A stretch of 34,257 nt of DNA from an uncultured archaeon (GTDB lineage Archaea > Iainarchaeota > Iainarchaeia > Iainarchaeales > JAAZKV01), in assembly GCA_964402905.1 (NCBI GenBank), contig CAYODU010000004.1, positions 1-34,257 on the forward strand, given 5' to 3'. Both the position numbers and the translations under genes were made by a program. The notes under the pieces were generated by a model, which saw nothing but the letters and a program-made list of their open reading frames with translations, had not been told where the DNA came from and ran no database searches. This document shows, piece by piece, positions 18,102-28,983 of the stretch. Each line of letters starts with the position of its first letter. Within the stretch, counting starts at the first letter, position 1.

Positions 18102-20648
18102 ATGAATAAAAGAATTCTTTTGAATTTTCTTGTTTTATTTTCCATGCTCTTGCTTGCAACAAATGCTTTTGCTATTCTTGACTCGGGGCAAATAAAAATT
18201 TTTGCAGTTACAGAAGATGAAAAAGGGATGGCTGCAGATTTATTTCTTTATAGTATTCCAGGAGATGGTGAAGTAGCTTTTATTACTTCAAATTCTCTTG
18301 TTGGAAAAGATACTCAAACAACCGGTAATATTGCACTTAAGATTGCGCAGAAAAAAACCGGCGTTGCAATAAATCAAAACAATTTTATTTTTGACATTAA
18401 AGCAAATGCTTCTGAGGTGGATGGCCCAAGTGCCGGGGCTGCAATGACTCTACTTGCATATTCGCTTTTATCAGAGAAAAAAATTCAGAGTGATATTGGT
18501 ATAACCGGAACAATTAATTCTGATGGTTCTGTGGGAATGGTTGGCGGAGTTTATGCAAAAGCACAAGCTGCTTCAGAAATAGGAATAAAATTACTTATGA
18601 TTCCAAAGGGAGAGGCGAGTCAAGTAATAAAAGAAACTGGAAAGGTAGTTTCAATAAATCTATTGGAATATGGTCCTGATAATTTGGGAATGAAAATTGT
18701 CGAAGTGGGTACGATTGATGAAGTATTAAAATTTGCATATTCAAGTATTGATTCGATAAAAGTTGATACCACAGTTACATCAAGTTATTTTGTTCCTGAA
18801 GCGATTCAATACAAGCCCGCACTAGAACCAATGAAGCAACTGTCAAAAAATTATATTGAAAGAGCGAAGAGTGCTATTAGCGATGCAAAAAAAGAGTTGG
18901 AGGTTACTACTCTTGATGATGCTACAAGAAGCACTTTTTATTCTAAAATAGGTGGAGCAGAGAGAGATATTGAATTAGCACAGATTTATCTTGACCAGAA
19001 CTACCTTTACTCTGCAGCAAATTATGCATTTAATTCGACTCTTACTGCTCTAACCATAAAAGAGATTTCAGCAAACCCGTCTTTGCTTGAAAAAGATTCT
19101 ACTATACTAAACTCAATGATAAGTTCACTAAGAGTTGATATTAAATCAACTGAAGAAAAAGCTGATTTTATTCCGTTTGATAAAATTGAATGGATTATTG
19201 GGGCACAGCAAAGAATTGCTTATGCAAAGAATGCTTTGAGCACTGCTGAGCAAGTTACTTTTTTACCCACTGATGATTCAGAAACCATAGAAGAAGGGCT
19301 AATTAAAAAAGTTTATGACTTTGTTTCTGCAGAAGCGTGGACTACTACTGCAAAAGATTTTATTATTGAAGCACAAAAAAGTAACCTAAAAAAACAACCA
19401 ATGTTCAAAGATGATTTTGTTTCGCAAGTAAAAACAAAAATTCTTTCTGTTGAACAGACACTGATTGATTCCAACATTCCTTCTGATATTGTCCGTGAAT
19501 CCCAAAGAAGAATTGATTCAGCAAAAATATCTTTTGATAACAATTTTTTCTTTGCAGCGCTTTATGATGCCTACTTTGCCGATTCTTTTGTACAAGCATA
19601 TGTAGAAAGAAAGGATTTGGATCCTACACAGCTTTTGGATGCAATGGAAAAAAAAGTTAGTGATTCTCATAATCTAAACTCTTTTTGGGCAAATGTTTAT
19701 CTTGACCATGCAAAGTTTTTTTTGCAGAATGCCATTTTTGAAAAATCAAGCGAAAGACAAAATAATATGGTAGCTAATCTTGAGACCGGTTATGACCTTG
19801 CAATATTGTCAAATTATATTGAATCTGCAAATGAGATCGTTGATAATTATCTTTCTAATAATCAATTACAGGATTATGTTTCTTCAAAACCAATAATTGA
19901 CATTCAATATACTAAAGTAGATTCAATTTCAAATTATCTTGTGATTTTATTAGTAGCTCTAATAATTTTGCTAGTTGCTTTGATTACTATTGGCATTAAA
20001 TCAAGAAAAAGAGTTTTTATTAACTATTCAAAAGCTGATAAATTAAATGCTTTACTTAATCGTCTTGATAAGGCTCTTTCACAGAAAAAGATTACTGATA
20101 CAGAATATTTTTTCATGAAGAAGAAGTATGAATCAGAATTTAGTCAAATGAAAAACTTTGCTTCCGAGAGATCAAAGATAACTCTTAATATTGATGAATC
20201 AAGAGCAAAATTAAGGGCTCTTGAGCGCGGAATGAAAGATTTGAAAAAGCATTATCGCGCAGGTTTGATTCTTCCGACAGATTATGAAAAGAGTTTGACT
20301 GAAGATGCACAAGAAATTGTTGAAATAAGAAAACAAATTTCTGATTACGAAAATGAATTAAAAAACAAACGTGGTTCTTTTAACCGACGCAAATCATTTT
20401 TGTATAGTTGTCCAAATGATTTTAAATCTTCTTTGGAAAAAAGTTCTCGTAAAAGAGCATCTAGTGCTAATAAACTTTCTTTTAGTGGAAAAGTAAGTAA
20501 ATCAAAAAAGCCCATTGGGGCAAGGCGTTTGCTTCATTCAAAAGATTCTAGTGTTAAAGGGACTAAAGAAATTGAAAAAGAACAAATTGCTGAAGAAAAA
20601 AGAGAAGAGCGGGAAAGAAAAAGATTAATTAAAAAGTCAAAAGAATAA
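18102..20648 (+). CDS. Membrane-anchored S16 (Lon-like) serine protease with cytoplasmic coiled-coil tail
   Basis: Signal peptide; VDGPSAG (catalytic Ser); ITGTI..DG.VG.VGGVYAK (catalytic Lys); TM helix near aa 610-632; no AAA+ domain. Confidence 0.85.
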   Translation: MNKRILLNFLVLFSMLLLATNAFAILDSGQIKIFAVTEDEKGMAADLFLYSIPGDGEVAFITSNSLVGKDTQTTGNIALKIAQKKTGVAINQNNFIFDIKANASEVDGPSAGAAMTLLAYSLLSEKKIQSDIGITGTINSDGSVGMVGGVYAKAQAASEIGIKLLMIPKGEASQVIKETGKVVSINLLEYGPDNLGMKIVEVGTIDEVLKFAYSSIDSIKVDTTVTSSYFVPEAIQYKPALEPMKQLSKNYIERAKSAISDAKKELEVTTLDDATRSTFYSKIGGAERDIELAQIYLDQNYLYSAANYAFNSTLTALTIKEISANPSLLEKDSTILNSMISSLRVDIKSTEEKADFIPFDKIEWIIGAQQRIAYAKNALSTAEQVTFLPTDDSETIEEGLIKKVYDFVSAEAWTTTAKDFIIEAQKSNLKKQPMFKDDFVSQVKTKILSVEQTLIDSNIPSDIVRESQRRIDSAKISFDNNFFFAALYDAYFADSFVQAYVERKDLDPTQLLDAMEKKVSDSHNLNSFWANVYLDHAKFFLQNAIFEKSSERQNNMVANLETGYDLAILSNYIESANEIVDNYLSNNQLQDYVSSKPIIDIQYTKVDSISNYLVILLVALIILLVALITIGIKSRKRVFINYSKADKLNALLNRLDKALSQKKITDTEYFFMKKKYESEFSQMKNFASERSKITLNIDESRAKLRALERGMKDLKKHYRAGLILPTDYEKSLTEDAQEIVEIRKQISDYENELKNKRGSFNRRKSFLYSCPNDFKSSLEKSSRKRASSANKLSFSGKVSKSKKPIGARRLLHSKDSSVKGTKEIEKEQIAEEKREERERKRLIKKSKE

Positions 20649-20689: not shown

Positions 20690-23656
20690 TTATTCGTCTT
20701 GTTTGTTTTTCAGTTTCAATCCTATTACTGAACTGTTGTCTTTGTTTAGTGCCACGCCAATTATTTGTGTTGCTTTTCTTGTTATGGTATCATTGTGTGT
20801 TATTGCAATGAATTGGCTTTTCTCAGCAATCATTTCAATTAGGTTACCCATTTTCATTGAATTTTCTTTATCGAGTGCTGCATCCGCTTCATCAAATGCG
20901 TAGAATGGTGCGGGAGAATATAGTTGTATAGCAAACATAAATGCGAGTGCAGTCAAAGTTTTTTCTCCTCCGCTCATTGAATCCATATTTTGTAGTTTTA
21001 CTCCCTTTGTTTTTGCATCAATTATTAATCCACTTTCAAGAGGCTTTTCTGCATTTGACAGAGTTAGATTACCTTCTCCGTTAAAGAATTTGAAGAACAT
21101 ATTCTGGAAATTAGAGTTGACTTCGTTAAAGCACTCCATGAATACATTTGTTCTTTTAACATCAATTTTGTCTATCATATCAAGAACGGCAAGTCTTTCA
21201 TTAGCCAGTTTGTTTGATTTTTCTTGTATATCATCAACTTCTTTTTTTAGTTCATTGAAATTGTCAACTGCTTTCATATTAACTGCGCCGATATCACTAA
21301 GTCTTTTTTCCACGTGAACAATTCTCTCTTTTAATTCTTCAATTGTTTTTTCTCCAATGTGTTCTGCTCCCTCAAATTCTTTTTCTTCTTCTTTTAAATC
21401 GTTTTCTTTTACTTCAAGTCGGCTTTTCTCAATATTGAATTCGTTTATGCGAGCATCAATTTTTTTAAGTTTTATATTTTCGTTTATGATTTCTTTTTCA
21501 ATTTTCTCTATTTTTTTGTCAAGTTTATCTTTCTTTTCAATAAGTTCATTTTGTTTTTTCTTTGCTTTATCTATTTCTTTTTCAATTGATAGAACATCTT
21601 TTTCAATTTCTTCAAGCAAAGGCTTTTTCTCGTTTATATCTTTTTGATTTTTTTCTATCTCGTTTTCAAGTTCAGCATTTTCAAGTAGTGCTCCTTCTTT
21701 ATTTGAGAGGAAGGTGCTTTGTTCTACTCTTAACTTATTTATTTTTGATTCCAAAGAAGCATGGTTATGTAGCAGACTCTCTTGTTTTGTTGCTATGTTT
21801 GAGTACTCTTCAAAAATATTTTGTGCGCGCAAATCTTTTAGTTTTTCTTTTATCTTCTCTCTTTTTACAAGCATTTCTCTTAATTTTTCATCCATTTTCT
21901 TCTTTTTTTCAAGTTGCCCTGCAATGATGCGTTCATCTATCTCTTGTTTTAAAACACCACTTTTTCTTTTTATTTCAACTATCTTTTCTAAAACAGCTTT
22001 TTCTATTGCAATATCCGATTCAAGTCTGTTAATACTAAAAATCTTTTCCTTTATTTCTTCGGTAACGCGTCTTGCATTAGCAATTTTGTTCTCCCCTTCC
22101 CTCTCAATAACACGTTGTTTCTCAATAACATCCATTTTCTGTTGTATAATAAGCTTTTTTTTGCTTGATTCTAGGTTTGCATCACACACTGGGCACTTTG
22201 ATAAAGCTTTTTCCAGTTCTTTTATTGCTTTTTCTTCTTCCTCAATAATTGAGATGCATTTGCTTTTTACTTCCTGAATTTCTTCAAGTTTTCTTTCGGC
22301 TTTCTTTAATTCTGATTCTAAATTAAGCCCCTTTTGAAGAGACTCAATTTCTTTTTTCTTTTCAATTATCTCTTCTGCTTCACTTTCAAGTTCTTTTAGT
22401 TCTTCATCCAGTTCAGTTAATTTTTTTTCATTGAAAGCTTTTTGTTTTTCCCATTGTTTTACAAATACTTCTAGATCAAAAAATTCTTTTCTTTTTTCTT
22501 CAATTTCACGATTTGTTGCATCAAGCTCGTTTTCATTATGTACTATTTCATTATTTTTTGATTTAACAACTTTTTCAATTTCTTGTTTTTTATTTGAGAT
22601 AAAATCAATTTCTTTTTGTATTCCTAAAATTTCTTTTTCAATTTCTTTCATGCCTTGTGAGTTCTCTCCAAGTCTTTTACTTGCATTTTCTGCTTCATCT
22701 TTATTTGAAGAAATTTTTTTAAGATTTTTTTCAATTAGAATCTTTTTTAATTCAATTTTTTCTTTTTCCAGATTAAGTTTTGATTTCTTTTCTTCAAATT
22801 CTTTTCCTATTGTAGAATAAATTTCCTCAGAACCTTTGATTGCCTTTTTGTTTGCTTCCTTTGCTTCTTCTTTTGATTTTATTAGCTCTTCACTTGATAA
22901 AGAAACATTTTTTTCAATATCTTCTTTTTGTTTTTCAATTTCTTTTAATTCACTATCAATTTCAACAGTCCTTTTTTCGATTTTATAAAGTTCCTTTGAA
23001 ATTATTGTTGCTTTTATTTGCTTTCTCTCTTCTTCAAGTTCTTTGTATTCGCGTGCTGAATTCATCTCTTGTTCTAGTTCACTCAAAAAAGTGTTTCTCT
23101 CATTTAAAATTATTGTAGCCTCTTTTATTCTCAAATCAACTTTTTCCAGTTCTTTTATTGCTTCTTGTTTTTTCTGATCAAATTCACTTAACCCTGCAAT
23201 ATTATCAATTATTTCTCTTCGTTCTATGGCCGACATTTCAATTATTTTTGTTATATCTCCTTGGGTAACAATGTTGTGCCCGGAAATGTCTATCCCAAGT
23301 TCTATAAGAAGAGAATTAATTTCATTTAGAGTTGTTCTTTTTCCATCAAGGCGATAAACGCTTTTTCCTTGTTTATCAACCATTCTACTTACTTCAAATT
23401 CTTTTTCTCTTCCTTTTATTGTTAAATCAACTTTTGCGTAACCTTCTTTGCAAGTGTTATTTACTAAATCAGTTAGCTTTCCTGCTCGTAGTGTTTTAAG
23501 TGAAGTAATACCAAGAACAAAAAGAAGTGCATCCAAAACATTGCTTTTTCCGGAGCCGTTACTACCCACAATTGCTGTGAATCCTTTGCTTATTGGTATC
23601 TCAGCTTTTCTAAATGATTTAAAATTTTTTAGTGTCAGTTTTATTAGGCGAGTCAT
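20690..23656 (-). CDS. smc: SMC-family ATPase with Smc-type heads and a central CXXC zinc hook
   Basis: NFKSF, GSNGSGKSN, Q-loop NIVTQGDI, long coiled coils, CPVC at aa 488-491, GAVNMKAV, MSGGEK, FDEADAALD, ITH. Confidence 0.9.
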   Translation of the reverse strand: MTRLIKLTLKNFKSFRKAEIPISKGFTAIVGSNGSGKSNVLDALLFVLGITSLKTLRAGKLTDLVNNTCKEGYAKVDLTIKGREKEFEVSRMVDKQGKSVYRLDGKRTTLNEINSLLIELGIDISGHNIVTQGDITKIIEMSAIERREIIDNIAGLSEFDQKKQEAIKELEKVDLRIKEATIILNERNTFLSELEQEMNSAREYKELEEERKQIKATIISKELYKIEKRTVEIDSELKEIEKQKEDIEKNVSLSSEELIKSKEEAKEANKKAIKGSEEIYSTIGKEFEEKKSKLNLEKEKIELKKILIEKNLKKISSNKDEAENASKRLGENSQGMKEIEKEILGIQKEIDFISNKKQEIEKVVKSKNNEIVHNENELDATNREIEEKRKEFFDLEVFVKQWEKQKAFNEKKLTELDEELKELESEAEEIIEKKKEIESLQKGLNLESELKKAERKLEEIQEVKSKCISIIEEEEKAIKELEKALSKCPVCDANLESSKKKLIIQQKMDVIEKQRVIEREGENKIANARRVTEEIKEKIFSINRLESDIAIEKAVLEKIVEIKRKSGVLKQEIDERIIAGQLEKKKKMDEKLREMLVKREKIKEKLKDLRAQNIFEEYSNIATKQESLLHNHASLESKINKLRVEQSTFLSNKEGALLENAELENEIEKNQKDINEKKPLLEEIEKDVLSIEKEIDKAKKKQNELIEKKDKLDKKIEKIEKEIINENIKLKKIDARINEFNIEKSRLEVKENDLKEEEKEFEGAEHIGEKTIEELKERIVHVEKRLSDIGAVNMKAVDNFNELKKEVDDIQEKSNKLANERLAVLDMIDKIDVKRTNVFMECFNEVNSNFQNMFFKFFNGEGNLTLSNAEKPLESGLIIDAKTKGVKLQNMDSMSGGEKTLTALAFMFAIQLYSPAPFYAFDEADAALDKENSMKMGNLIEMIAEKSQFIAITHNDTITRKATQIIGVALNKDNSSVIGLKLKNKQDE

Positions 23657-23665
23657 TTAATCAAC

Positions 23666-24448
23666 CTACTTGAAATAATAATAAGAAACCGCTAAACCAA
23701 AGAAAGTGGTTGCAATAACATCTCCTAATAAGTCGAATATAATTTCTATATCCACCAGTACTCCGATATATGAAATCCAGTTCCACAAAATGTATGTTAT
23801 TATTAGCACGACTATTATTAATACAAGGTTAGAGATAAATTTTTTTTGACTGAAATCCCAGCTTTTTTGAAATGCTTTTTTAACATTGTTGTCAACAAAA
23901 GCTGGTAATACAAATGCTAATCTAACTAGCAAAATTAATCCGACTACGAAAATAATGATTGGTAACAAAATCAAAAGTAAAAAATCTGTTACTGCAACTA
24001 CTGCAACAAAATCACTTACTATGCCGAAAATAGTTGCTACAACATACCATAAAATAAATAGTAGAAAAGAAACTACTAAAACAAATATTGTAAGTCCAAG
24101 ACTTTTTTTCCATTCTAGAACAGATTCATTAATTGCTTGAACAAATTTTTTTCCGTTAGCTACTCTTGCCATTGATAAAAGCGCTATAATACTTAAAAGT
24201 AAAACAAATATTCCGCATAAAAGCATTGCAATTGTTTCAAGTGGATAATTGGTTAAGAACACTGATAGTATATCTGTTCCAGCAAATGCTTCACTGTATA
24301 AAACAAAATCAGTTATGGGTCTTTCAAGAACCCATGTTGTAAGATTTGATAATAAATAAACAACTAGTGCCACGACAATCATTGGCAAAAAAATAACCGG
24401 TTTAAAAATCATCGTTTTAACTGTTTTTTCAAGCGAAACAAAAACCAT
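23666..24448 (-). CDS. Multi-pass membrane protein, probably co-transcribed with smc
   Basis: About 6 TM helices, AFQKSWDF motif; ATG at 24448 with GGTGA RBS; 9-bp gap to smc. Confidence 0.8.
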   Translation of the reverse strand: MVFVSLEKTVKTMIFKPVIFLPMIVVALVVYLLSNLTTWVLERPITDFVLYSEAFAGTDILSVFLTNYPLETIAMLLCGIFVLLLSIIALLSMARVANGKKFVQAINESVLEWKKSLGLTIFVLVVSFLLFILWYVVATIFGIVSDFVAVVAVTDFLLLILLPIIIFVVGLILLVRLAFVLPAFVDNNVKKAFQKSWDFSQKKFISNLVLIIVVLIITYILWNWISYIGVLVDIEIIFDLLGDVIATTFFGLAVSYYYFK

Positions 24449-24666
24449 TTCAATCACCAACACAAACAAAAAAGGCTTATTAAAAACCTGCTAATATTAA
24501 GTAAAAGACATTTAAATTACTTTCTGAACTTTCCGCCTTATAAAGCCCTATTTATTTTATTGAAAAAGGGCTTTTTTGATTACTCTGTCTTTTTTGCTTC
24601 TCTTGGAAAGCCTTTAAAGAAGCTTTTAAAAGCTTTGCATCCCCTTTTTTTATAACTGGTGAGATA

Positions 24667-24945
24667 ATGAAATTTCCAAAAGAAAAGAAACTTTACTGTA
24701 AAAAGTGCAAAAAACATACTAAGCACAAGCTAAAAGAATTCAAATCTGGTAAAGGTAGAACACTTGCACAAGGGAATGTAAGACACGAAAAGAATACTGC
24801 CCATGGTTACGGCGGAAGATACAAGTACGTTGCAACAGTAAAAAAACAGAATAAAAAGCCTGTTTTTGTTGGTGAATGTACTATATGCAAGCAAAAATGC
24901 GAGTACTCACTTGGAAAAAGAATGAAGAAAGTAACTCAAGAATAA
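24667..24945 (+). CDS. rpl44e: Ribosomal protein eL42 (L44e)
   Basis: MKFPK....YCKKCKKHTKH, GYGG, ECTIC zinc finger. Confidence 0.93.
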   Translation: MKFPKEKKLYCKKCKKHTKHKLKEFKSGKGRTLAQGNVRHEKNTAHGYGGRYKYVATVKKQNKKPVFVGECTICKQKCEYSLGKRMKKVTQE

Positions 24946-25012: not shown

Positions 25013-25807
25013 ATGACTTTTAACAATTCTGTTTTGCTTATAATAAAGCAGAACACTGGACTTGACTATAATGACTTATTTGCGAGAATAGTTTCGCGTT
25101 ACAAAAATCCTTCTTCTGCAAACTCAGCGCTTAGTCGTGCACTAAAAAATCTTGTTTCTTTTGGTTTGATAAAAAAAGAAGGTAATAACTTATTTATTAC
25201 TGATAAGGGTTCTGCCTCAATAAGCATTGAAATGAAAGAAAAACTCGTTCTTAAATTAAATGAATCAATGAAAAAACCTTTACCTAATATTGAAGAAATA
25301 ATAAAACTTTTGATTGTTTTGTCTCAGCGGGCAGCACAAAGCCCGGAACTTTTGAGTAATGCAAAAGAAAATGCTTCTTTTACAATAAAAGATGTTGAAG
25401 ATGTGAGAGCTAAGATAAAGGAGAGGCGAATTTATCTTAAAAAAATGAGTTTGTTACTTAAGGTACAAGAAGAAAAGTTGAGGGAACTTGATTTTAATGA
25501 TTCTATCCAAGTGACTTTTGATGAAATGCTAGTTGAAAAAATAGTTTCTTTTTCTGTAAATGATAAGCTTGTTTTAGAAACGCGTGACAGCGAATTAGAA
25601 AGATTAATTCCGCAGATATGGAGAAAACAGAGTGAATATGTTGTTGAAAAAGAAAATATTGGACAGTTATGCAAAATTCTATTAGAAAAACAATTGTTTA
25701 AAGCGAATATTTATTTTTCCGGAATAAAAATTAATGTTAATAATACTAAAGCAAATTGCTTTGCTTCTTATAAAACACTAAAAAAGTTTTTTGGAGAAAA
25801 AAAGTAG
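25013..25807 (+). CDS. Hypothetical protein with N-terminal winged helix-turn-helix
   Basis: ALSRALKNLVSFGLIKKEGNNLFITDKG resembles a wHTH recognition helix plus wing. Confidence 0.7.
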   Translation: MTFNNSVLLIIKQNTGLDYNDLFARIVSRYKNPSSANSALSRALKNLVSFGLIKKEGNNLFITDKGSASISIEMKEKLVLKLNESMKKPLPNIEEIIKLLIVLSQRAAQSPELLSNAKENASFTIKDVEDVRAKIKERRIYLKKMSLLLKVQEEKLRELDFNDSIQVTFDEMLVEKIVSFSVNDKLVLETRDSELERLIPQIWRKQSEYVVEKENIGQLCKILLEKQLFKANIYFSGIKINVNNTKANCFASYKTLKKFFGEKK

Positions 25808-25833: not shown

Positions 25834-28800
25834 TTAGGCTATTCTATTTCCGTTAATGCCCTCTATTATTTCTGTTCTTTCTTCACCGGTTTTTTTCTTT
25901 AGTACACCTTCCCATATTGGAATGAATAGGTGAGTAATTTCTTTTACTGTAATATTTCCCCACATTTTTTTAATAAGTTCAGCTGCTTCTTTTTCCTGGA
26001 TTTTTGGTTGTATTAGTACTGCACTCTCAACCTCAGTTATTGGGCGTCTTCCTATGCTTGGCATTATTGCATGTAACGGGCTTTTTGGTAAATCGAATTT
26101 AGCTGTAAGATAATACAAGTCATCTTCTTTTTGTTTCATTCCAACAACAATCTTTTTCTCGATTAGTTTGTCAAGAACTCTTTTTGCATTACCCTTTTCC
26201 ATTTCAAGTAACTTGGCGATTTGTTCTAGATTCATTTTCTTTTCAAGCATTTTAATTACTTTGATTTCACTTTCACTAAGTTCAAGCATCTTATCAAGCC
26301 CACGACTCTCAACGATTTTTCCGTTAATATCATGGATAAATTCTCCTGTTAAAGAATTAATGTATGCTTCTCCTAATTGGAAAGCATCTTTTTGTGAAAA
26401 ATAATTGTATTTTATTTTGTATAACACCCCGTACTTTAGTGTTAGCCTATCGAGTATTTCTTCTTCTCCAAAAAAGCCAAGCTTCTTTTTTAATCTCAAA
26501 TTCGCAAGTAATTTTCTTGCGTTTGCTTCATCAATATTTCCCTTTAGTGCAGTTAACTCTACTCTTGTTTCATAAGATGCTTCTGTTTCGCCCACTTCTT
26601 TTTTACCAACTTTAATTTCTTTTTCTCCACTTTCAATAGATTCTTCGGTTTCATCTATCGCTGTTTCCTCTTCTAATTCTTCTTTTACTCCTGGAGCATA
26701 AATTCTTTCTTCATCAATATTAATTCCTTTTTCTCTTAGCGCACTCAAAATATCTTCTAATTTAACATTCTTTTTGTAAGTGTTGTTTAGTGTTTCAAGT
26801 GTTTGTTCTAAACTCTCAATTGAAATGCTAGGATCTTTTTCTAGTTGTCTTAGAACAATACTTGCTCCAAGAACCTCAACTTGGTTTTGATCAAGTTCGT
26901 GTTTTACCTCACTTGTTTCAGCATCTCTTCCTTCGTGCTGAGACATTCTTGGGCGTATCCCCATTACAAATGCTCTTGTAGTTGTTTCTTGTCTGTCTCC
27001 GGTTAAAGCAATTCCAACTGGCATTGTCTTAATGAAATTTGGTTTCTTGTATTGTGCAGGAAGAATAGCTGGAGTTCTTTTGTAAATACTTTTTATATCA
27101 TCATCAAAAACAAGTTTGTGAACCATTATTATGTCTAGCTGGCTTAGTACTCTTGAATCAATTGCACTTGGTTGCTGTGTAGCAAAAACTAGTGAACATC
27201 CCGGTCTTCTTCCTTGTTTAACATACTCTACAAGCGCACTACTTGCCGGTGTCTTTTGATTTCCCCCAGGAATAAGTGTGTGTGCTTCATCCAAAAAAAG
27301 CCATGTTGGTGGAACATTTAATTCAACTAAATCTTCCATAGTTGTTTCAGCAAATTTTCCTGCAGCTTCTCTTCTTGTACTTAATTTTCTTGCAGCTAAT
27401 AATCTTCTTGAAAGAATTCCTATTACAAGTGCACTAACATTATCCTCTAAAAAACTAGTGTCAAGAATAGTCATTTGTCCTGCTCTTGAAAGCATACTTA
27501 GCGGAGTTCCTTTTTCATCAAATATTCCCCAGTGCTTTGCAGCATCAAATCTTGAAGCGAGGGCTCTGATTGAATCAGCTTTGTATCCTCTTTCTCTATC
27601 ATTTAATTCTGCATCATGTTCAAAACAACTTATTAGGTCTTCTAAAGAAAAAGTATTTTCTTTTCCTCTAACAGTTTTTGCGTTTTCATCAGTATAACCG
27701 GTTTTTACTTTTGCAATCCCTTTTTCCATTAAAAGTCCTGTCGGAGAAAATCTGTCAATACCAAAAGTTAGGCACCAATCCTCTGCTGTGAGCAAAGCAG
27801 GCTGAATAGAAAAAGTTGCATCATAAGTACTCTTTGGAACACTCGAACGCATTCCAACTGGAATGAATACTTTAATGTTATCAAGTCCCCTTGGCATCAA
27901 ATCCCATTTGGCCAAGAGCTCAAGTTCTTTTTCTTCTTTGTTTGGATGTTTCATTGACCAGAAAACACCTATTGGATCAACAACAACTATTCCAACATTC
28001 TTATTTTTTATTGCAAGTTCCTCGGCTATTACTCCTAGCACATAACTTTTTCCGCTTCCTCTTGCACCACAAACAAATACAACGTGTGGATTTAATCCAT
28101 CTAAATAAACATTTTTGTCTTTTAACGATTCTTCGTTAACTCTTCCAAGAAATAATCCCGCTTCTTCACCATAATTTTTCAAAACACTTTTTTTTCTTCC
28201 AATGAAAGCATTTCCTTGTTCACTCATTAAAAAGTCTAGTTTTGGTTTTACCTCACTTTCATTAAAGACTTCTTTTGTATTCTCTTCCAGAACTTTTTCT
28301 GAATTAACTTCTTCGTTTTTAATTTTTTCACTTTCAATGCGAAGCTTTTCAGTTTCTTCTTTTGAAATACCCTCTTCTTTTGTTCCATGCTCTTTCAATA
28401 AGTAATCAGCTAAATCATCATGTTCATCAACAGCAGCTTTATTTGCTTTATTTTTTATCACAGTTTTGATAATATTTTTTTCAATAGGATTAATAGTAGA
28501 AAAAGTTGGTTCCTCTTCGAATTCTTCTTCATCTTGACTAACTTTTAAATCAAGTTTTCCGCTAGTTCTTTTTTGTTTCAAACCACTTTCAATGCTTTTC
28601 TCCATGCCATCTTTTACTATTTCATTGTAATTGCTTTTCTTTTTACCAAATTTTTTATCCTTTATTTTTTCTTTAACCTTATCTTTTTTTTCTTTGTCCT
28701 CTTCACTCACTTCCAAAAATAATTCTGGTTCTTTTTCTTCACTCTCACTTTCTTCTTCGATTAATTCGTCTTCATCTTCGTCGTCTTCTTTATTTTCTTT

Positions 28801-28983
28801 TTCTACTGACTTATTTTTTTGTTTTTCTTTTAGTTCATTAGCTTTCTCTTCTAAACGTTTTCTTGCAGCCTTTTTCTCGTCATCTTCACCAAAAACGTCG
28901 TCGAACATGTCCTTGCTCGTATCGATACTAGTTTCTACCCTGTCGTTATCGTAAATTGAATCATCTTCAGCCAAAAAGCTCAC
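25834..28983 (-). CDS. Large HerA/DUF87-family P-loop ATPase with acidic N-terminus and C-terminal wHTH
   Basis: PHVVFVCGARGSGKS, VVVDPIG, LFLDEAH, KQGRRPG, FATQQPS; C-terminal MNLEQIAKLLEMEKGNAKRVLDKLIEKKIV. Confidence 0.85.
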   Translation of the reverse strand: MSFLAEDDSIYDNDRVETSIDTSKDMFDDVFGEDDEKKAARKRLEEKANELKEKQKNKSVEKENKEDDEDEDELIEEESESEEKEPELFLEVSEEDKEKKDKVKEKIKDKKFGKKKSNYNEIVKDGMEKSIESGLKQKRTSGKLDLKVSQDEEEFEEEPTFSTINPIEKNIIKTVIKNKANKAAVDEHDDLADYLLKEHGTKEEGISKEETEKLRIESEKIKNEEVNSEKVLEENTKEVFNESEVKPKLDFLMSEQGNAFIGRKKSVLKNYGEEAGLFLGRVNEESLKDKNVYLDGLNPHVVFVCGARGSGKSYVLGVIAEELAIKNKNVGIVVVDPIGVFWSMKHPNKEEKELELLAKWDLMPRGLDNIKVFIPVGMRSSVPKSTYDATFSIQPALLTAEDWCLTFGIDRFSPTGLLMEKGIAKVKTGYTDENAKTVRGKENTFSLEDLISCFEHDAELNDRERGYKADSIRALASRFDAAKHWGIFDEKGTPLSMLSRAGQMTILDTSFLEDNVSALVIGILSRRLLAARKLSTRREAAGKFAETTMEDLVELNVPPTWLFLDEAHTLIPGGNQKTPASSALVEYVKQGRRPGCSLVFATQQPSAIDSRVLSQLDIIMVHKLVFDDDIKSIYKRTPAILPAQYKKPNFIKTMPVGIALTGDRQETTTRAFVMGIRPRMSQHEGRDAETSEVKHELDQNQVEVLGASIVLRQLEKDPSISIESLEQTLETLNNTYKKNVKLEDILSALREKGINIDEERIYAPGVKEELEEETAIDETEESIESGEKEIKVGKKEVGETEASYETRVELTALKGNIDEANARKLLANLRLKKKLGFFGEEEILDRLTLKYGVLYKIKYNYFSQKDAFQLGEAYINSLTGEFIHDINGKIVESRGLDKMLELSESEIKVIKMLEKKMNLEQIAKLLEMEKGNAKRVLDKLIEKKIVVGMKQKEDDLYYLTAKFDLPKSPLHAIMPSIGRRPITEVESAVLIQPKIQEKEAAELIKKMWGNITVKEITHLFIPIWEGVLKKKTGEERTEIIEGINGNRIA

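Follow-up and report, generated by a model that had tools for sequence, protein, structure and literature searches.

We analysed a stretch of DNA of 34,257 nucleotides (nt), called the window here, from an uncultured archaeon of the order Iainarchaeales (contig CAYODU010000004.1 of GenBank assembly GCA_964402905.1). The window carries an smc gene on its minus strand, at positions 20690..23656, which encodes a protein of 988 amino acids (aa), P0001. By its sequence, P0001 is an Smc by descent that falls outside the textbook Smc architecture. It was probably inherited vertically, with canonical Smc heads and full-length antiparallel arms, and with the hinge of about 185 residues replaced by a zinc hook of the Rad50 type. 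It is also likely to be the single Smc of an Smc-ScpAB condensin that dimerises through this hook, which would make it a natural counterpart of the engineered B. subtilis protein Smc(Zh). An initial annotation of the window had proposed such a hinge-to-hook chimera, and the proposal is supported by the Smc heads and arms, the hingeless apex, the invariant CPxC motif, and the position of the protein in trees.

Heads, arms, and apex of P0001

The best NCBIfam model for P0001 was TIGR02169 (SMC_prok_A), with 550.6 bits. TIGR02168 scored 399.4 bits, and Pfam SMC_N scored 126.7 bits across aa 4-974. Models of non-Smc proteins gave 94.9 bits (the best Rad50 model), 88 bits (ASRP, covering ClsN/Sph), 42.4 bits (RecN), and 38.6 bits (arcadin-4). 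The best stretch of the ASRP match was confined to aa 659-953, in the C-terminal head, and SbcC_Walker_B (PF13558) scored 12.8 against a cut-off of 27. When PDB sequences were searched, the Pyrococcus Smc head (5xei) was the best match (1.3e-87), and Rad50 heads reached 2.7e-16. The initial annotation had judged the heads to be Smc-like rather than Rad50-like. The model scores (550.6 versus at most 94.9 bits), the PDB match, and the trees described below all agree with this. P0001 also stands apart from the ClsN/Sph and Rad50 families, whose models scored 88 and 94.9 bits against cut-offs of 300 and 700 (cut-offs of the Rad50 models range from 700 to 1087).

The matches to the two Smc models flank the apex. 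Residues 6-488 correspond to positions 4-489 of 1165 in TIGR02169, and residues 474-972 correspond to positions 677-1170 of 1181 in TIGR02168. The N-terminal match stops exactly at the first cysteine of a CPVC motif, and about 185 hinge-holding model positions (about 490-676) have no counterpart in P0001. Both arm strands are therefore collinear with the Smc models, and the hinge block alone is missing. Pfam SMC_hinge (PF06470) was not found in P0001, and a motif scan of the protein confirmed the earlier claim that the G-x6-G-x3-GG motif is absent. A relaxed form of the glycine motif occurred in 1 of 41 hook types versus 78 of 84 hinge types. Boundaries between arm and hinge were taken from hidden Markov model coordinates; a MAFFT mapping of them between hook and hinge types was unreliable in the coiled coil.

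We built a 130-residue profile of the apex (A4) from 28 sequences and compared it with 177,635 distinct PDB sequences. Only the Rad50 hooks of P. furiosus were significant (1L8D, E = 2.5e-8; 6ZFF, E = 5.2e-8), and the next match had an E value of 0.13. The alignment takes in the flanks of the Rad50 hook (…ELKKa.SKCPVCdseL…) besides its cysteines. The putative hook of P0001 is significantly like the Rad50 hook. P0001 has five cysteines in all, and just two of them make up a CxxC, namely the single CPVC at aa 488-491 (nt 22184-22195) that the initial annotation had pointed out. C488, P489, and C491 are invariant in 13 sequences (P0001 and 12 homologues at about 60% identity). C-P-x-C is likewise invariant in 40 hook-type sequences, which reach down to 30% identity with P0001, and in the 28 apex sequences, so the motif is conserved in orthologues as the chimera proposal had implied. 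A Pfam scan of 40 homologues found SMC_hinge in none and Rad50_zn_hook (PF04423) in 18 at E ≤ 0.01.

An AlphaFold2 model of the full protein (40 homologues; mean predicted local distance difference test [pLDDT] score, 79.4) shows two helices, 156-483 and 497-759, joined by a turn at 484-496, and its arm tip carries no globular domain. A model of the apex by itself (28 sequences; pLDDT, 91.2) folds as a simple helical hairpin in which CPVCD forms the loop. Both models fit the earlier description of coiled coil between the heads and no globular hinge. In the Foldseek list of the apex model, the Rad50 rod 6zff_B ranked 26th, with a TM score of 0.62. A prediction for two copies of the apex (aa 400-580, with zinc) had a score of 0.08 (mark, 0.42) and weighs neither way.

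The smc frame is intact, starts with ATG, and includes the stop codon, whereas the plus-strand reading of the same positions is riddled with stops. Thus, the 988-aa open reading frame (ORF) that had been annotated is present, and we add that it lies on the minus strand. All four head motifs quoted before (LRA..L.DL, NIVTQGDI, GAVNMKAV, and PFYAFDEADAALD) were located in P0001. Residues K37, R57, Q132, S895, G897, E898, D922, E923, and H954 are invariant in 40 homologues. The parts of the protein are listed here.

23192..23656, minus strand: N-terminal half of the ABC ATPase head, aa 1-155 (motifs and beta/alpha fold in the AlphaFold2 model)
nt 23543-23566, minus strand: Walker A GSNGSGKS, aa 31-38 (motif scan)
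aa 56-64, minus strand: LRAGKLTDL, which includes R57 (motif scan)
nt 23252-23275, minus strand: Q-loop NIVTQGDI, aa 128-135 (motif scan)
22208..23191, minus strand: ascending coiled-coil arm strand, aa 156-483 (AlphaFold2 helix with breaks at 283 and 442-445)
22169..22207, minus strand: apex turn in the hinge position, aa 484-496, 13 residues (AlphaFold2 model)
nt 22184-22195, minus strand: zinc-hook motif CPVC, aa 488-491 (motif scan)
21290..22168, minus strand: descending coiled-coil arm strand, aa 497-789 (helical model with breaks at 550, 574, 612, and 760-771)
20693..21289, minus strand: C-terminal half of the head, aa 790-988 (motif scan)
aa 790-797, minus strand: neck motif GAVNMKAV (motif scan)
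nt 20960-20974, minus strand: signature SGGEK, aa 895-899 (motif scan)
nt 20870-20908, minus strand: Walker B/D-loop PFYAFDEADAALD, aa 917-929, with FDEAD as Walker B (motif scan)
nt 20792-20803, minus strand: H-loop ITHN, aa 952-955 (motif scan)

Relatives, trees, and distribution

A word-indexed search with the central third of P0001 returned 13 homologues, 985-1008 aa long, and a fragment of 789 aa; their contigs measure up to 306 kb. The closest homologue records belong to Candidatus Iainarchaeum and Candidatus Forterrea (Iainarchaeota/Diapherotrites, DPANN), and one homologue is named merely "AAA family ATPase" by one source. We also ran a profile search over 1.84 billion representatives and used the best 150 matches. 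CPxC was the sole CxxC in 37 of these, and the other 113 had no CxxC. Full-length hook proteins matched the profile end to end in one stretch, with 564-1399 bits (most of them at least 700). The best hinge-type protein scored 595 bits in two stretches, which part at about positions 482 and 504 of the profile. Hinge-type relatives are about 1110-1190 aa long, versus 988 aa for P0001. In all 27 named assemblies from a genome collection, CP[VIT]C stands at residue 487-488. In two public runs from lake water, X2 (435 nt, 22060-22494) and X3 (273 nt, 21983-22255), contigs span nt 22184-22195 without any difference. X2 and X3 possibly represent the source sample itself, and the bridging contigs therefore exclude a local mis-join only. 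Contigs of a further run, X1, did not reach across the apex.

Trees were built after the apex columns had been taken out. The FastTree tree had 102 rows, with 42 of the 84 hinge-type representatives kept (the first 20, then every third). The IQ-TREE tree (LG+G4, short search) had 58 hand-picked rows and 831 columns. Two bacterial Smc proteins were the outgroup. Rad50 was dropped as an outgroup because its arms cannot be aligned, and both Rad50 and ASRP were set apart by model scores, outside the tree. In the FastTree tree, a clade with support of 100 lies inside hinge-type Smc and contains 32 hook types, 10 proteins without hinge or hook, and 2 others. IQ-TREE recovered the same clade (Shimodaira-Hasegawa-like approximate likelihood ratio test, 98). 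Its sister there is the hinge-type Smc of G076, a genome of the same phylum (support, 90), and the other hinge-type Smc proteins of the phylum lie near the hook clade. The initial annotation had looked to a head phylogeny with Smc, Rad50, ClsN, and Sph. The nesting of the hook clade inside hinge-type Smc comes from the trees, whereas the separation from Rad50, ClsN, and Sph comes from the model scores.

P0047 (1012 aa) has a hinge at 434-548 (96 bits) and shortened arms, and it fell inside the hook clade in the free tree. It is the closest hinge-bearing relative of this clade in the representative library. Forcing it outside the clade was 18 log-likelihood (lnL) units better (P value of the approximately unbiased test [p-AU], 0.73). 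P0047 can be placed outside at no cost, and the data are therefore consistent with the hinge having been lost once, at the root of the clade. P0156 (968 aa, CPKC at 480) groups with other hinge-type Smc proteins (support, 100). Forcing it into the main hook clade was rejected (delta lnL, 169; p-AU, 2e-8), in a test whose group was named after the tree had been seen. Since P0156 is separate from the main clade, the hinge would have been replaced by a hook at least twice. This suggests a second, independent hinge-to-hook replacement in the P0156 lineage. The hook flank of P0156 (CPKCKQK…) resembles that of the Rad50 hook encoded in the same genome as P0001.

Hookless proteins are interleaved with hook types, and the starred branches of the IQ-TREE tree force at least four changes. 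This reads as repeated secondary loss of the putative hook. The hinge and CxxC are both missing, and the arms are somewhat shorter, in P0030, P0034, P0038, P0039, P0040, P0046, P0050, P0051, and P0057 (905-949 aa). Further frames without hinge or CxxC are G019:C4:65352-68069, L070-L072 (G125, G040, and G119), and L049:5980-8772 (Ca. Iainarchaeum). Another type, represented by P0109, L063 (G020), and about ten frames of family f3 (1083-1100 aa), has an apex about 100 aa longer than that of the hook type. Pfam recognises no hinge and no hook in it, and its branch point is close to the base of the hingeless clade. Its apex may be a degenerate hinge. BLASTP of P0109 against P0055 gave a C-terminal high-scoring segment pair only. 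P0032 (1548 aa) carries an intein with a LAGLIDADG homing endonuclease just past Walker A (Intein_splicing, 103 bits). Frames of 1541-1576 aa in G031, G061, G079, and G102 probably carry one too, judging from the start of their Smc match at query residue 36-37.

Arm length varies little among the full-length hook proteins. In 32 of them, the median distance was 457 residues (431-460) from Walker A to the cysteine and 407 residues (382-409) from the cysteine to the signature; 17 rows, some of them fragments, were left out because their Walker A or signature pattern was unmatched. Short variants have shed near-equal lengths from both strands (-95/-91, -93/-89, and -111/-107). Such matched shortening would be expected of an antiparallel arm whose length matters. 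The short-arm hook Smc proteins include P0043, P0052, and P0053 (772-810 aa) and L073-L077 (G022, G118, G060, G059, and G083; 773-831 aa).

The order was sampled with 31 genomes (that of P0001 and 30 relatives, 18 from the same family and 12 from other families), and the phylum was sampled with an even selection of 121 genomes. In the order sample, an end-to-end collinear Smc match was found in 17 of the 18 same-family genomes and in G021, G024, G026, G028, and G030. A hinge was found in 1 of the 31 genomes (G025), and ScpA and ScpB were each found in all 31. In family f1, 16 of 19 genomes had the hook in both an Smc-sized and a Rad50-sized frame. Across the phylum sample, 116 genomes had an Smc match, which ran end to end without a hinge-sized gap in 72. 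The hook was present in 71 of these 72, 67 by the apex profile in a frame of equal length (a count collated by hand from two result lists) and 4 by direct observation of CPxC (G024, G038, G071, and G108). G116 (L068) has a 1013-aa collinear frame with no CxxC on direct reading. In five further genomes the hook Smc has short arms (773-831 aa), and in G036 the frame that carries the hook is truncated. Hook-bearing Smc proteins thus occur in at least 77 of the 121 genomes.

Six of the 121 genomes, in three families outside the order, have a hinge, in frames of 1139-1182 aa. The apex profile matched none of these six hinge-type Smc frames. In three of the hinge-bearing genomes (G033, G044, and G076), it matched Rad50 frames with a DEPT Walker B and no second Smc. 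Rad50 frames of hinge-retaining sister lineages gave its best matches (E = 5.5e-15 and 3.5e-12), and the Rad50 of these lineages may be the donor of the hook. A hook Smc together with a hinge Smc was not found in G033, G044, and G076 or in any other genome checked. G031 (99% complete) and G041, each assembled as a single contig, contain a hook Smc and gave no match to the hinge. The lack of co-occurrence and the single-contig genomes support the idea that one orthologue has been replaced by the other.

The genome that encodes P0001 comprises 668 kb in 41 contigs and is 85.8% complete, and no SMC hinge was found anywhere in it. It does encode ScpA (G000:C6:2055-2648, 57.1 bits) and ScpB (G000:C38:4767-5105, 85.7 bits, ending at a contig edge). 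It also encodes a separate Rad50 of 690 aa (G000:C3, L011:574-2646, minus strand). The CPKC hook of this Rad50 passed the Pfam cut-off when the genome was searched, and its Walker B reads …LILDEPTHNLD. Hence, a genome search along the lines first suggested turned up ScpA, ScpB, and Rad50 and no second, hinge-bearing Smc. Judging from these genomes, the hook Smc is probably the sole Smc of this archaeon and of most of its order.

Alternative readings and known systems

If P0001 belongs to a hook-dimerised condensin, two Smc chains would join at their arm tips, where the four cysteines of two CPxC motifs would bind one Zn2+. The heads would engage upon ATP. ScpA (the kleisin) and ScpB (the kite), encoded elsewhere in the genome, would close and regulate the ring, and the complex would act as the cell's condensin in chromosome organisation and segregation. 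For P0001 itself, we infer that it binds zinc, dimerises at the apex, assembles into the complex, and has this role in the cell.

Several points weigh against this reading. The apex of P0001 scored 20.8 bits with Rad50_zn_hook, which is below the cut-off of 24.3, and this family was unlisted at E ≤ 1 in a Pfam scan of the whole protein. In the comparison of SMC_hinge with Rad50_zn_hook that the initial annotation had suggested, the absence of the hinge therefore stood, and the hook was recognised in 18 of 40 homologues but fell short in the query. A Foldseek search of the apex model against the PDB gave no match at E ≤ 0.001 and returned mostly generic helical hairpins. The TIGR02169 and TIGR02168 scores are below the curated cut-offs of 729.4 and 567.35, a shortfall that would be expected of a protein without the hinge block. 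Zinc binding and dimerisation rest on inference rather than on a confident model. The genome is 85.8% complete, so a second Smc may have escaped this one assembly. Finally, P0030, P0034, P0038, the proteins of G019, G125, G040, and G119, and the collinear protein of G116 lack both the hinge and CxxC, and they are scattered among the hook types in the trees. Therefore, the hook is not indispensable in this clade and is perhaps not the sole dimerisation contact. It may be helpful rather than essential.

The same relatives bear on an alternative in which P0001 is a hingeless Smc whose CPxC turn is a zinc-stabilised or plain hairpin cap, with ScpAB, engaged heads, and contacts between the arms, in place of a hook-hook junction, keeping the chains together. 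Hookless hingeless Smc proteins (905-954 aa) and the collinear 1013-aa frame of G116 lie in the same clade, so an apex dimerisation module would be dispensable there. A hinge-less SMC of uncultured marine Actinobacteria, stated in the available text to be without CXXC, also fits this alternative (PMC12153180). Like P0001, the actinobacterial proteins represent a natural loss of the hinge and are placed inside the SMC radiation in that text. Unlike P0001, which fills the place with a conserved hook, they are bacterial and have no CXXC (PMC12153180), and the hookless relatives in Iainarchaeota resemble them more than the hook types do. However, we consider a hairpin cap unlikely. CPxC is invariant down to 30% identity, and a hook seems to have arisen a second time in another Smc clade. 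The flanks, besides the cysteines, resemble the intermolecular hook of Rad50. Moreover, two cysteines of one chain cannot complete a tetrahedral zinc site, as is general knowledge for the Rad50 hook.

A broader idea is that the Smc apex is a naturally interchangeable module, with a hinge-to-hook swap in the order, another in a second lineage, and later loss of the hook in several sublineages, and that zinc pairing might join Smc-ScpAB complexes in trans or join Smc to Rad50. One cell holds two CPxC-hook proteins, Smc and Rad50, and such pairing is therefore conceivable, although we think the idea as a whole improbable. If Smc did pair with Rad50, chromosome folding would be coupled to break repair in a minimal genome.

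It is very unlikely that P0001 forms no condensin and instead serves in repair, compartments, or defence as a protein akin to Rad50 or ASRP (ClsN/Sph) in which just the heads are Smc-like. ASRPs (ClsN, Sph1/2; NF045487) are described, in the part of the paper available, as the SMC-related hook-bearing family besides Rad50 (PMC9389158), and a HerA-like ATPase gene lies two genes away from smc. However, the Rad50 and ASRP scores fall far below their cut-offs while the Smc model reaches 550.6 bits, the Walker B is FDEAD and not DEPT, and the genome has its own Rad50. ScpA and ScpB are present in all 31 genomes of the order sample, and no other Smc was found in 30 of those. The trees also put the protein within Smc. 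Like the ASRPs, P0001 is an archaeal protein of the SMC superfamily with a zinc hook in the place of the hinge, as far as the accessible sections describe them (PMC9389158). Unlike P0001, which is an Smc by descent and 988 aa long, they form a family separate from Smc with a size of about 600-700 aa, and their model has just 593 positions and scored 88 bits against its cut-off of 300. ClsN has a mass of 68 kDa, and its coiled coil takes up about 350 aa, according to the portion of the article at hand (PMC9764264). With Rad50/SbcC, P0001 shares a CPxC hook at the tip of an antiparallel coiled coil and an apex profile that matches 1L8D and 6ZFF. It differs in its Smc-type head, in having FDEAD rather than DEPT, in its longer arms (988 aa versus 690 aa for the Rad50 of the same genome), and in the lack of an adjacent Mre11.

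An artefact, through assembly loss of a hinge-coding segment or decay into a pseudogene, is next to impossible, even though the assembly behind the window is of the metagenome type and has 41 contigs. The frame is intact, 13 database homologues and 27 further assemblies show a protein of this length with this motif, hingeless collinear Smc proteins occur in 72 of 121 phylum genomes with arm spans conserved within a few residues, and the X2 and X3 contigs (from runs that are possibly the source sample) bridge the hook codons with 0 differences. The assembly deletion that the initial annotation had raised as a way to refute its reading is thus countered by the same architecture in dozens of independent assemblies.

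Roles of the SMC hinge beyond dimerisation (DNA binding, a DNA entry gate, and head contact) are a long-standing question. The reading that we prefer, an Smc-ScpAB condensin with a hook at the hinge position, bears on it. P0001 resembles canonical prokaryotic Smc (e.g., that of Pyrococcus, 5xei) in its head motifs, in the length and collinearity of its arms, in the presence of ScpA and ScpB in the genome, and in its position in the tree. Canonical Smc has a hinge, whereas P0001 lacks PF06470, has a CPxC turn in place of about 185 model positions, and is 988 aa long. In the B. subtilis protein Smc(Zh), the hinge was exchanged for the P. furiosus Rad50 zinc hook, and the available text describes the chimera as functional, dependent on arm length (PMC5344682). 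The strain list in that text gives the hinge module as residues 487-684, which is close to the natural gap of about 490-676, although the agreement is approximate because model positions are not residue numbers (PMC5344682). Like P0001, Smc(Zh) thus combines the heads and arms of Smc with a hook of the Rad50 type where the hinge would be, as far as this part of the paper describes it. Unlike Smc(Zh), P0001 occurs in nature, belongs to an archaeon, and represents a type that is fixed across most of an order, with a hook sequence of its own (CPVCDS.L) and a function that we predict.

An Smc with a hook for a hinge is found in print, in the open-access literature, solely as the engineered bacterial protein. 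We found no description of a natural zinc-hook Smc in that literature, as represented by the text available for each paper; the supplements of PMC5344682, PMC8665677, and PMC9389158 could hold some unremarked. The word "hook" is absent from the accessible text of a survey of archaeal SMC (PMC8665677). As the available portion describes it, the sequence sets of another study were collected using hinge alignments as queries, so hook-bearing Smc would be missed (PMC5344682).

Judging from the text at hand, the main argument for the irrelevance of the hinge fold has so far been one engineered B. subtilis chimera (PMC5344682). A whole archaeal order would now be evolution's own run of the hinge-swap experiment, with heads, ScpAB, and arm length kept and with putative dimerisation by the hook. 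Relatives that have shortened arms, no apex module, or a retained hinge form a natural series for testing which functions of the hinge are dispensable and how arm length is tuned. Compact Smc proteins (772-1010 aa) also become available for structural work. Hinge-based searches and curated Smc models miss hook Smc, and surveys of Smc in DPANN may therefore undercount.

Genes next to smc

The gene for Mre11/SbcD usually adjoins that for Rad50/SbcC. In this genome, no phosphoesterase (Mre11-like) gene adjoins smc or the Rad50 gene, and the three Metallophos matches are on contigs C5, C34, and C2, away from both. As noted initially, mre11/sbcD, scpA, and scpB are absent among the neighbours of smc in the window, and ScpA and ScpB are encoded elsewhere in the genome. 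The neighbours are genes for a Lon_C-domain protein, a 267-aa membrane protein, L44e, an ORF without a Pfam family, and a HerA-like ATPase. The order HerA-like – ORF264 – L44e – 267-aa membrane protein – smc – Lon_C protein is conserved, with the following coordinates beside smc.

25834-28983, minus strand: HerA-like ATPase
25013-25807, plus strand: ORF264
24667-24945, plus strand: L44e
23666-24469, minus strand: 267-aa membrane protein
18102-20648, plus strand: Lon_C protein

The membrane-protein gene stops 10 nt ahead of the start of smc, on the same strand. Among 36 related loci, 32 have this gene immediately before smc, and in three of the four exceptions the locus is truncated at a contig end. 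Co-transcription of the pair is possible. The membrane protein has a weak match to GPDPase_memb, below the cut-off. Two of the neighbours are unusually large. The HerA/DUF87-type ATPase has 1049 aa, and the Lon_C protein has 848 aa, with the C-terminal domain of Lon protease (aa 98-212) as its sole Pfam match.

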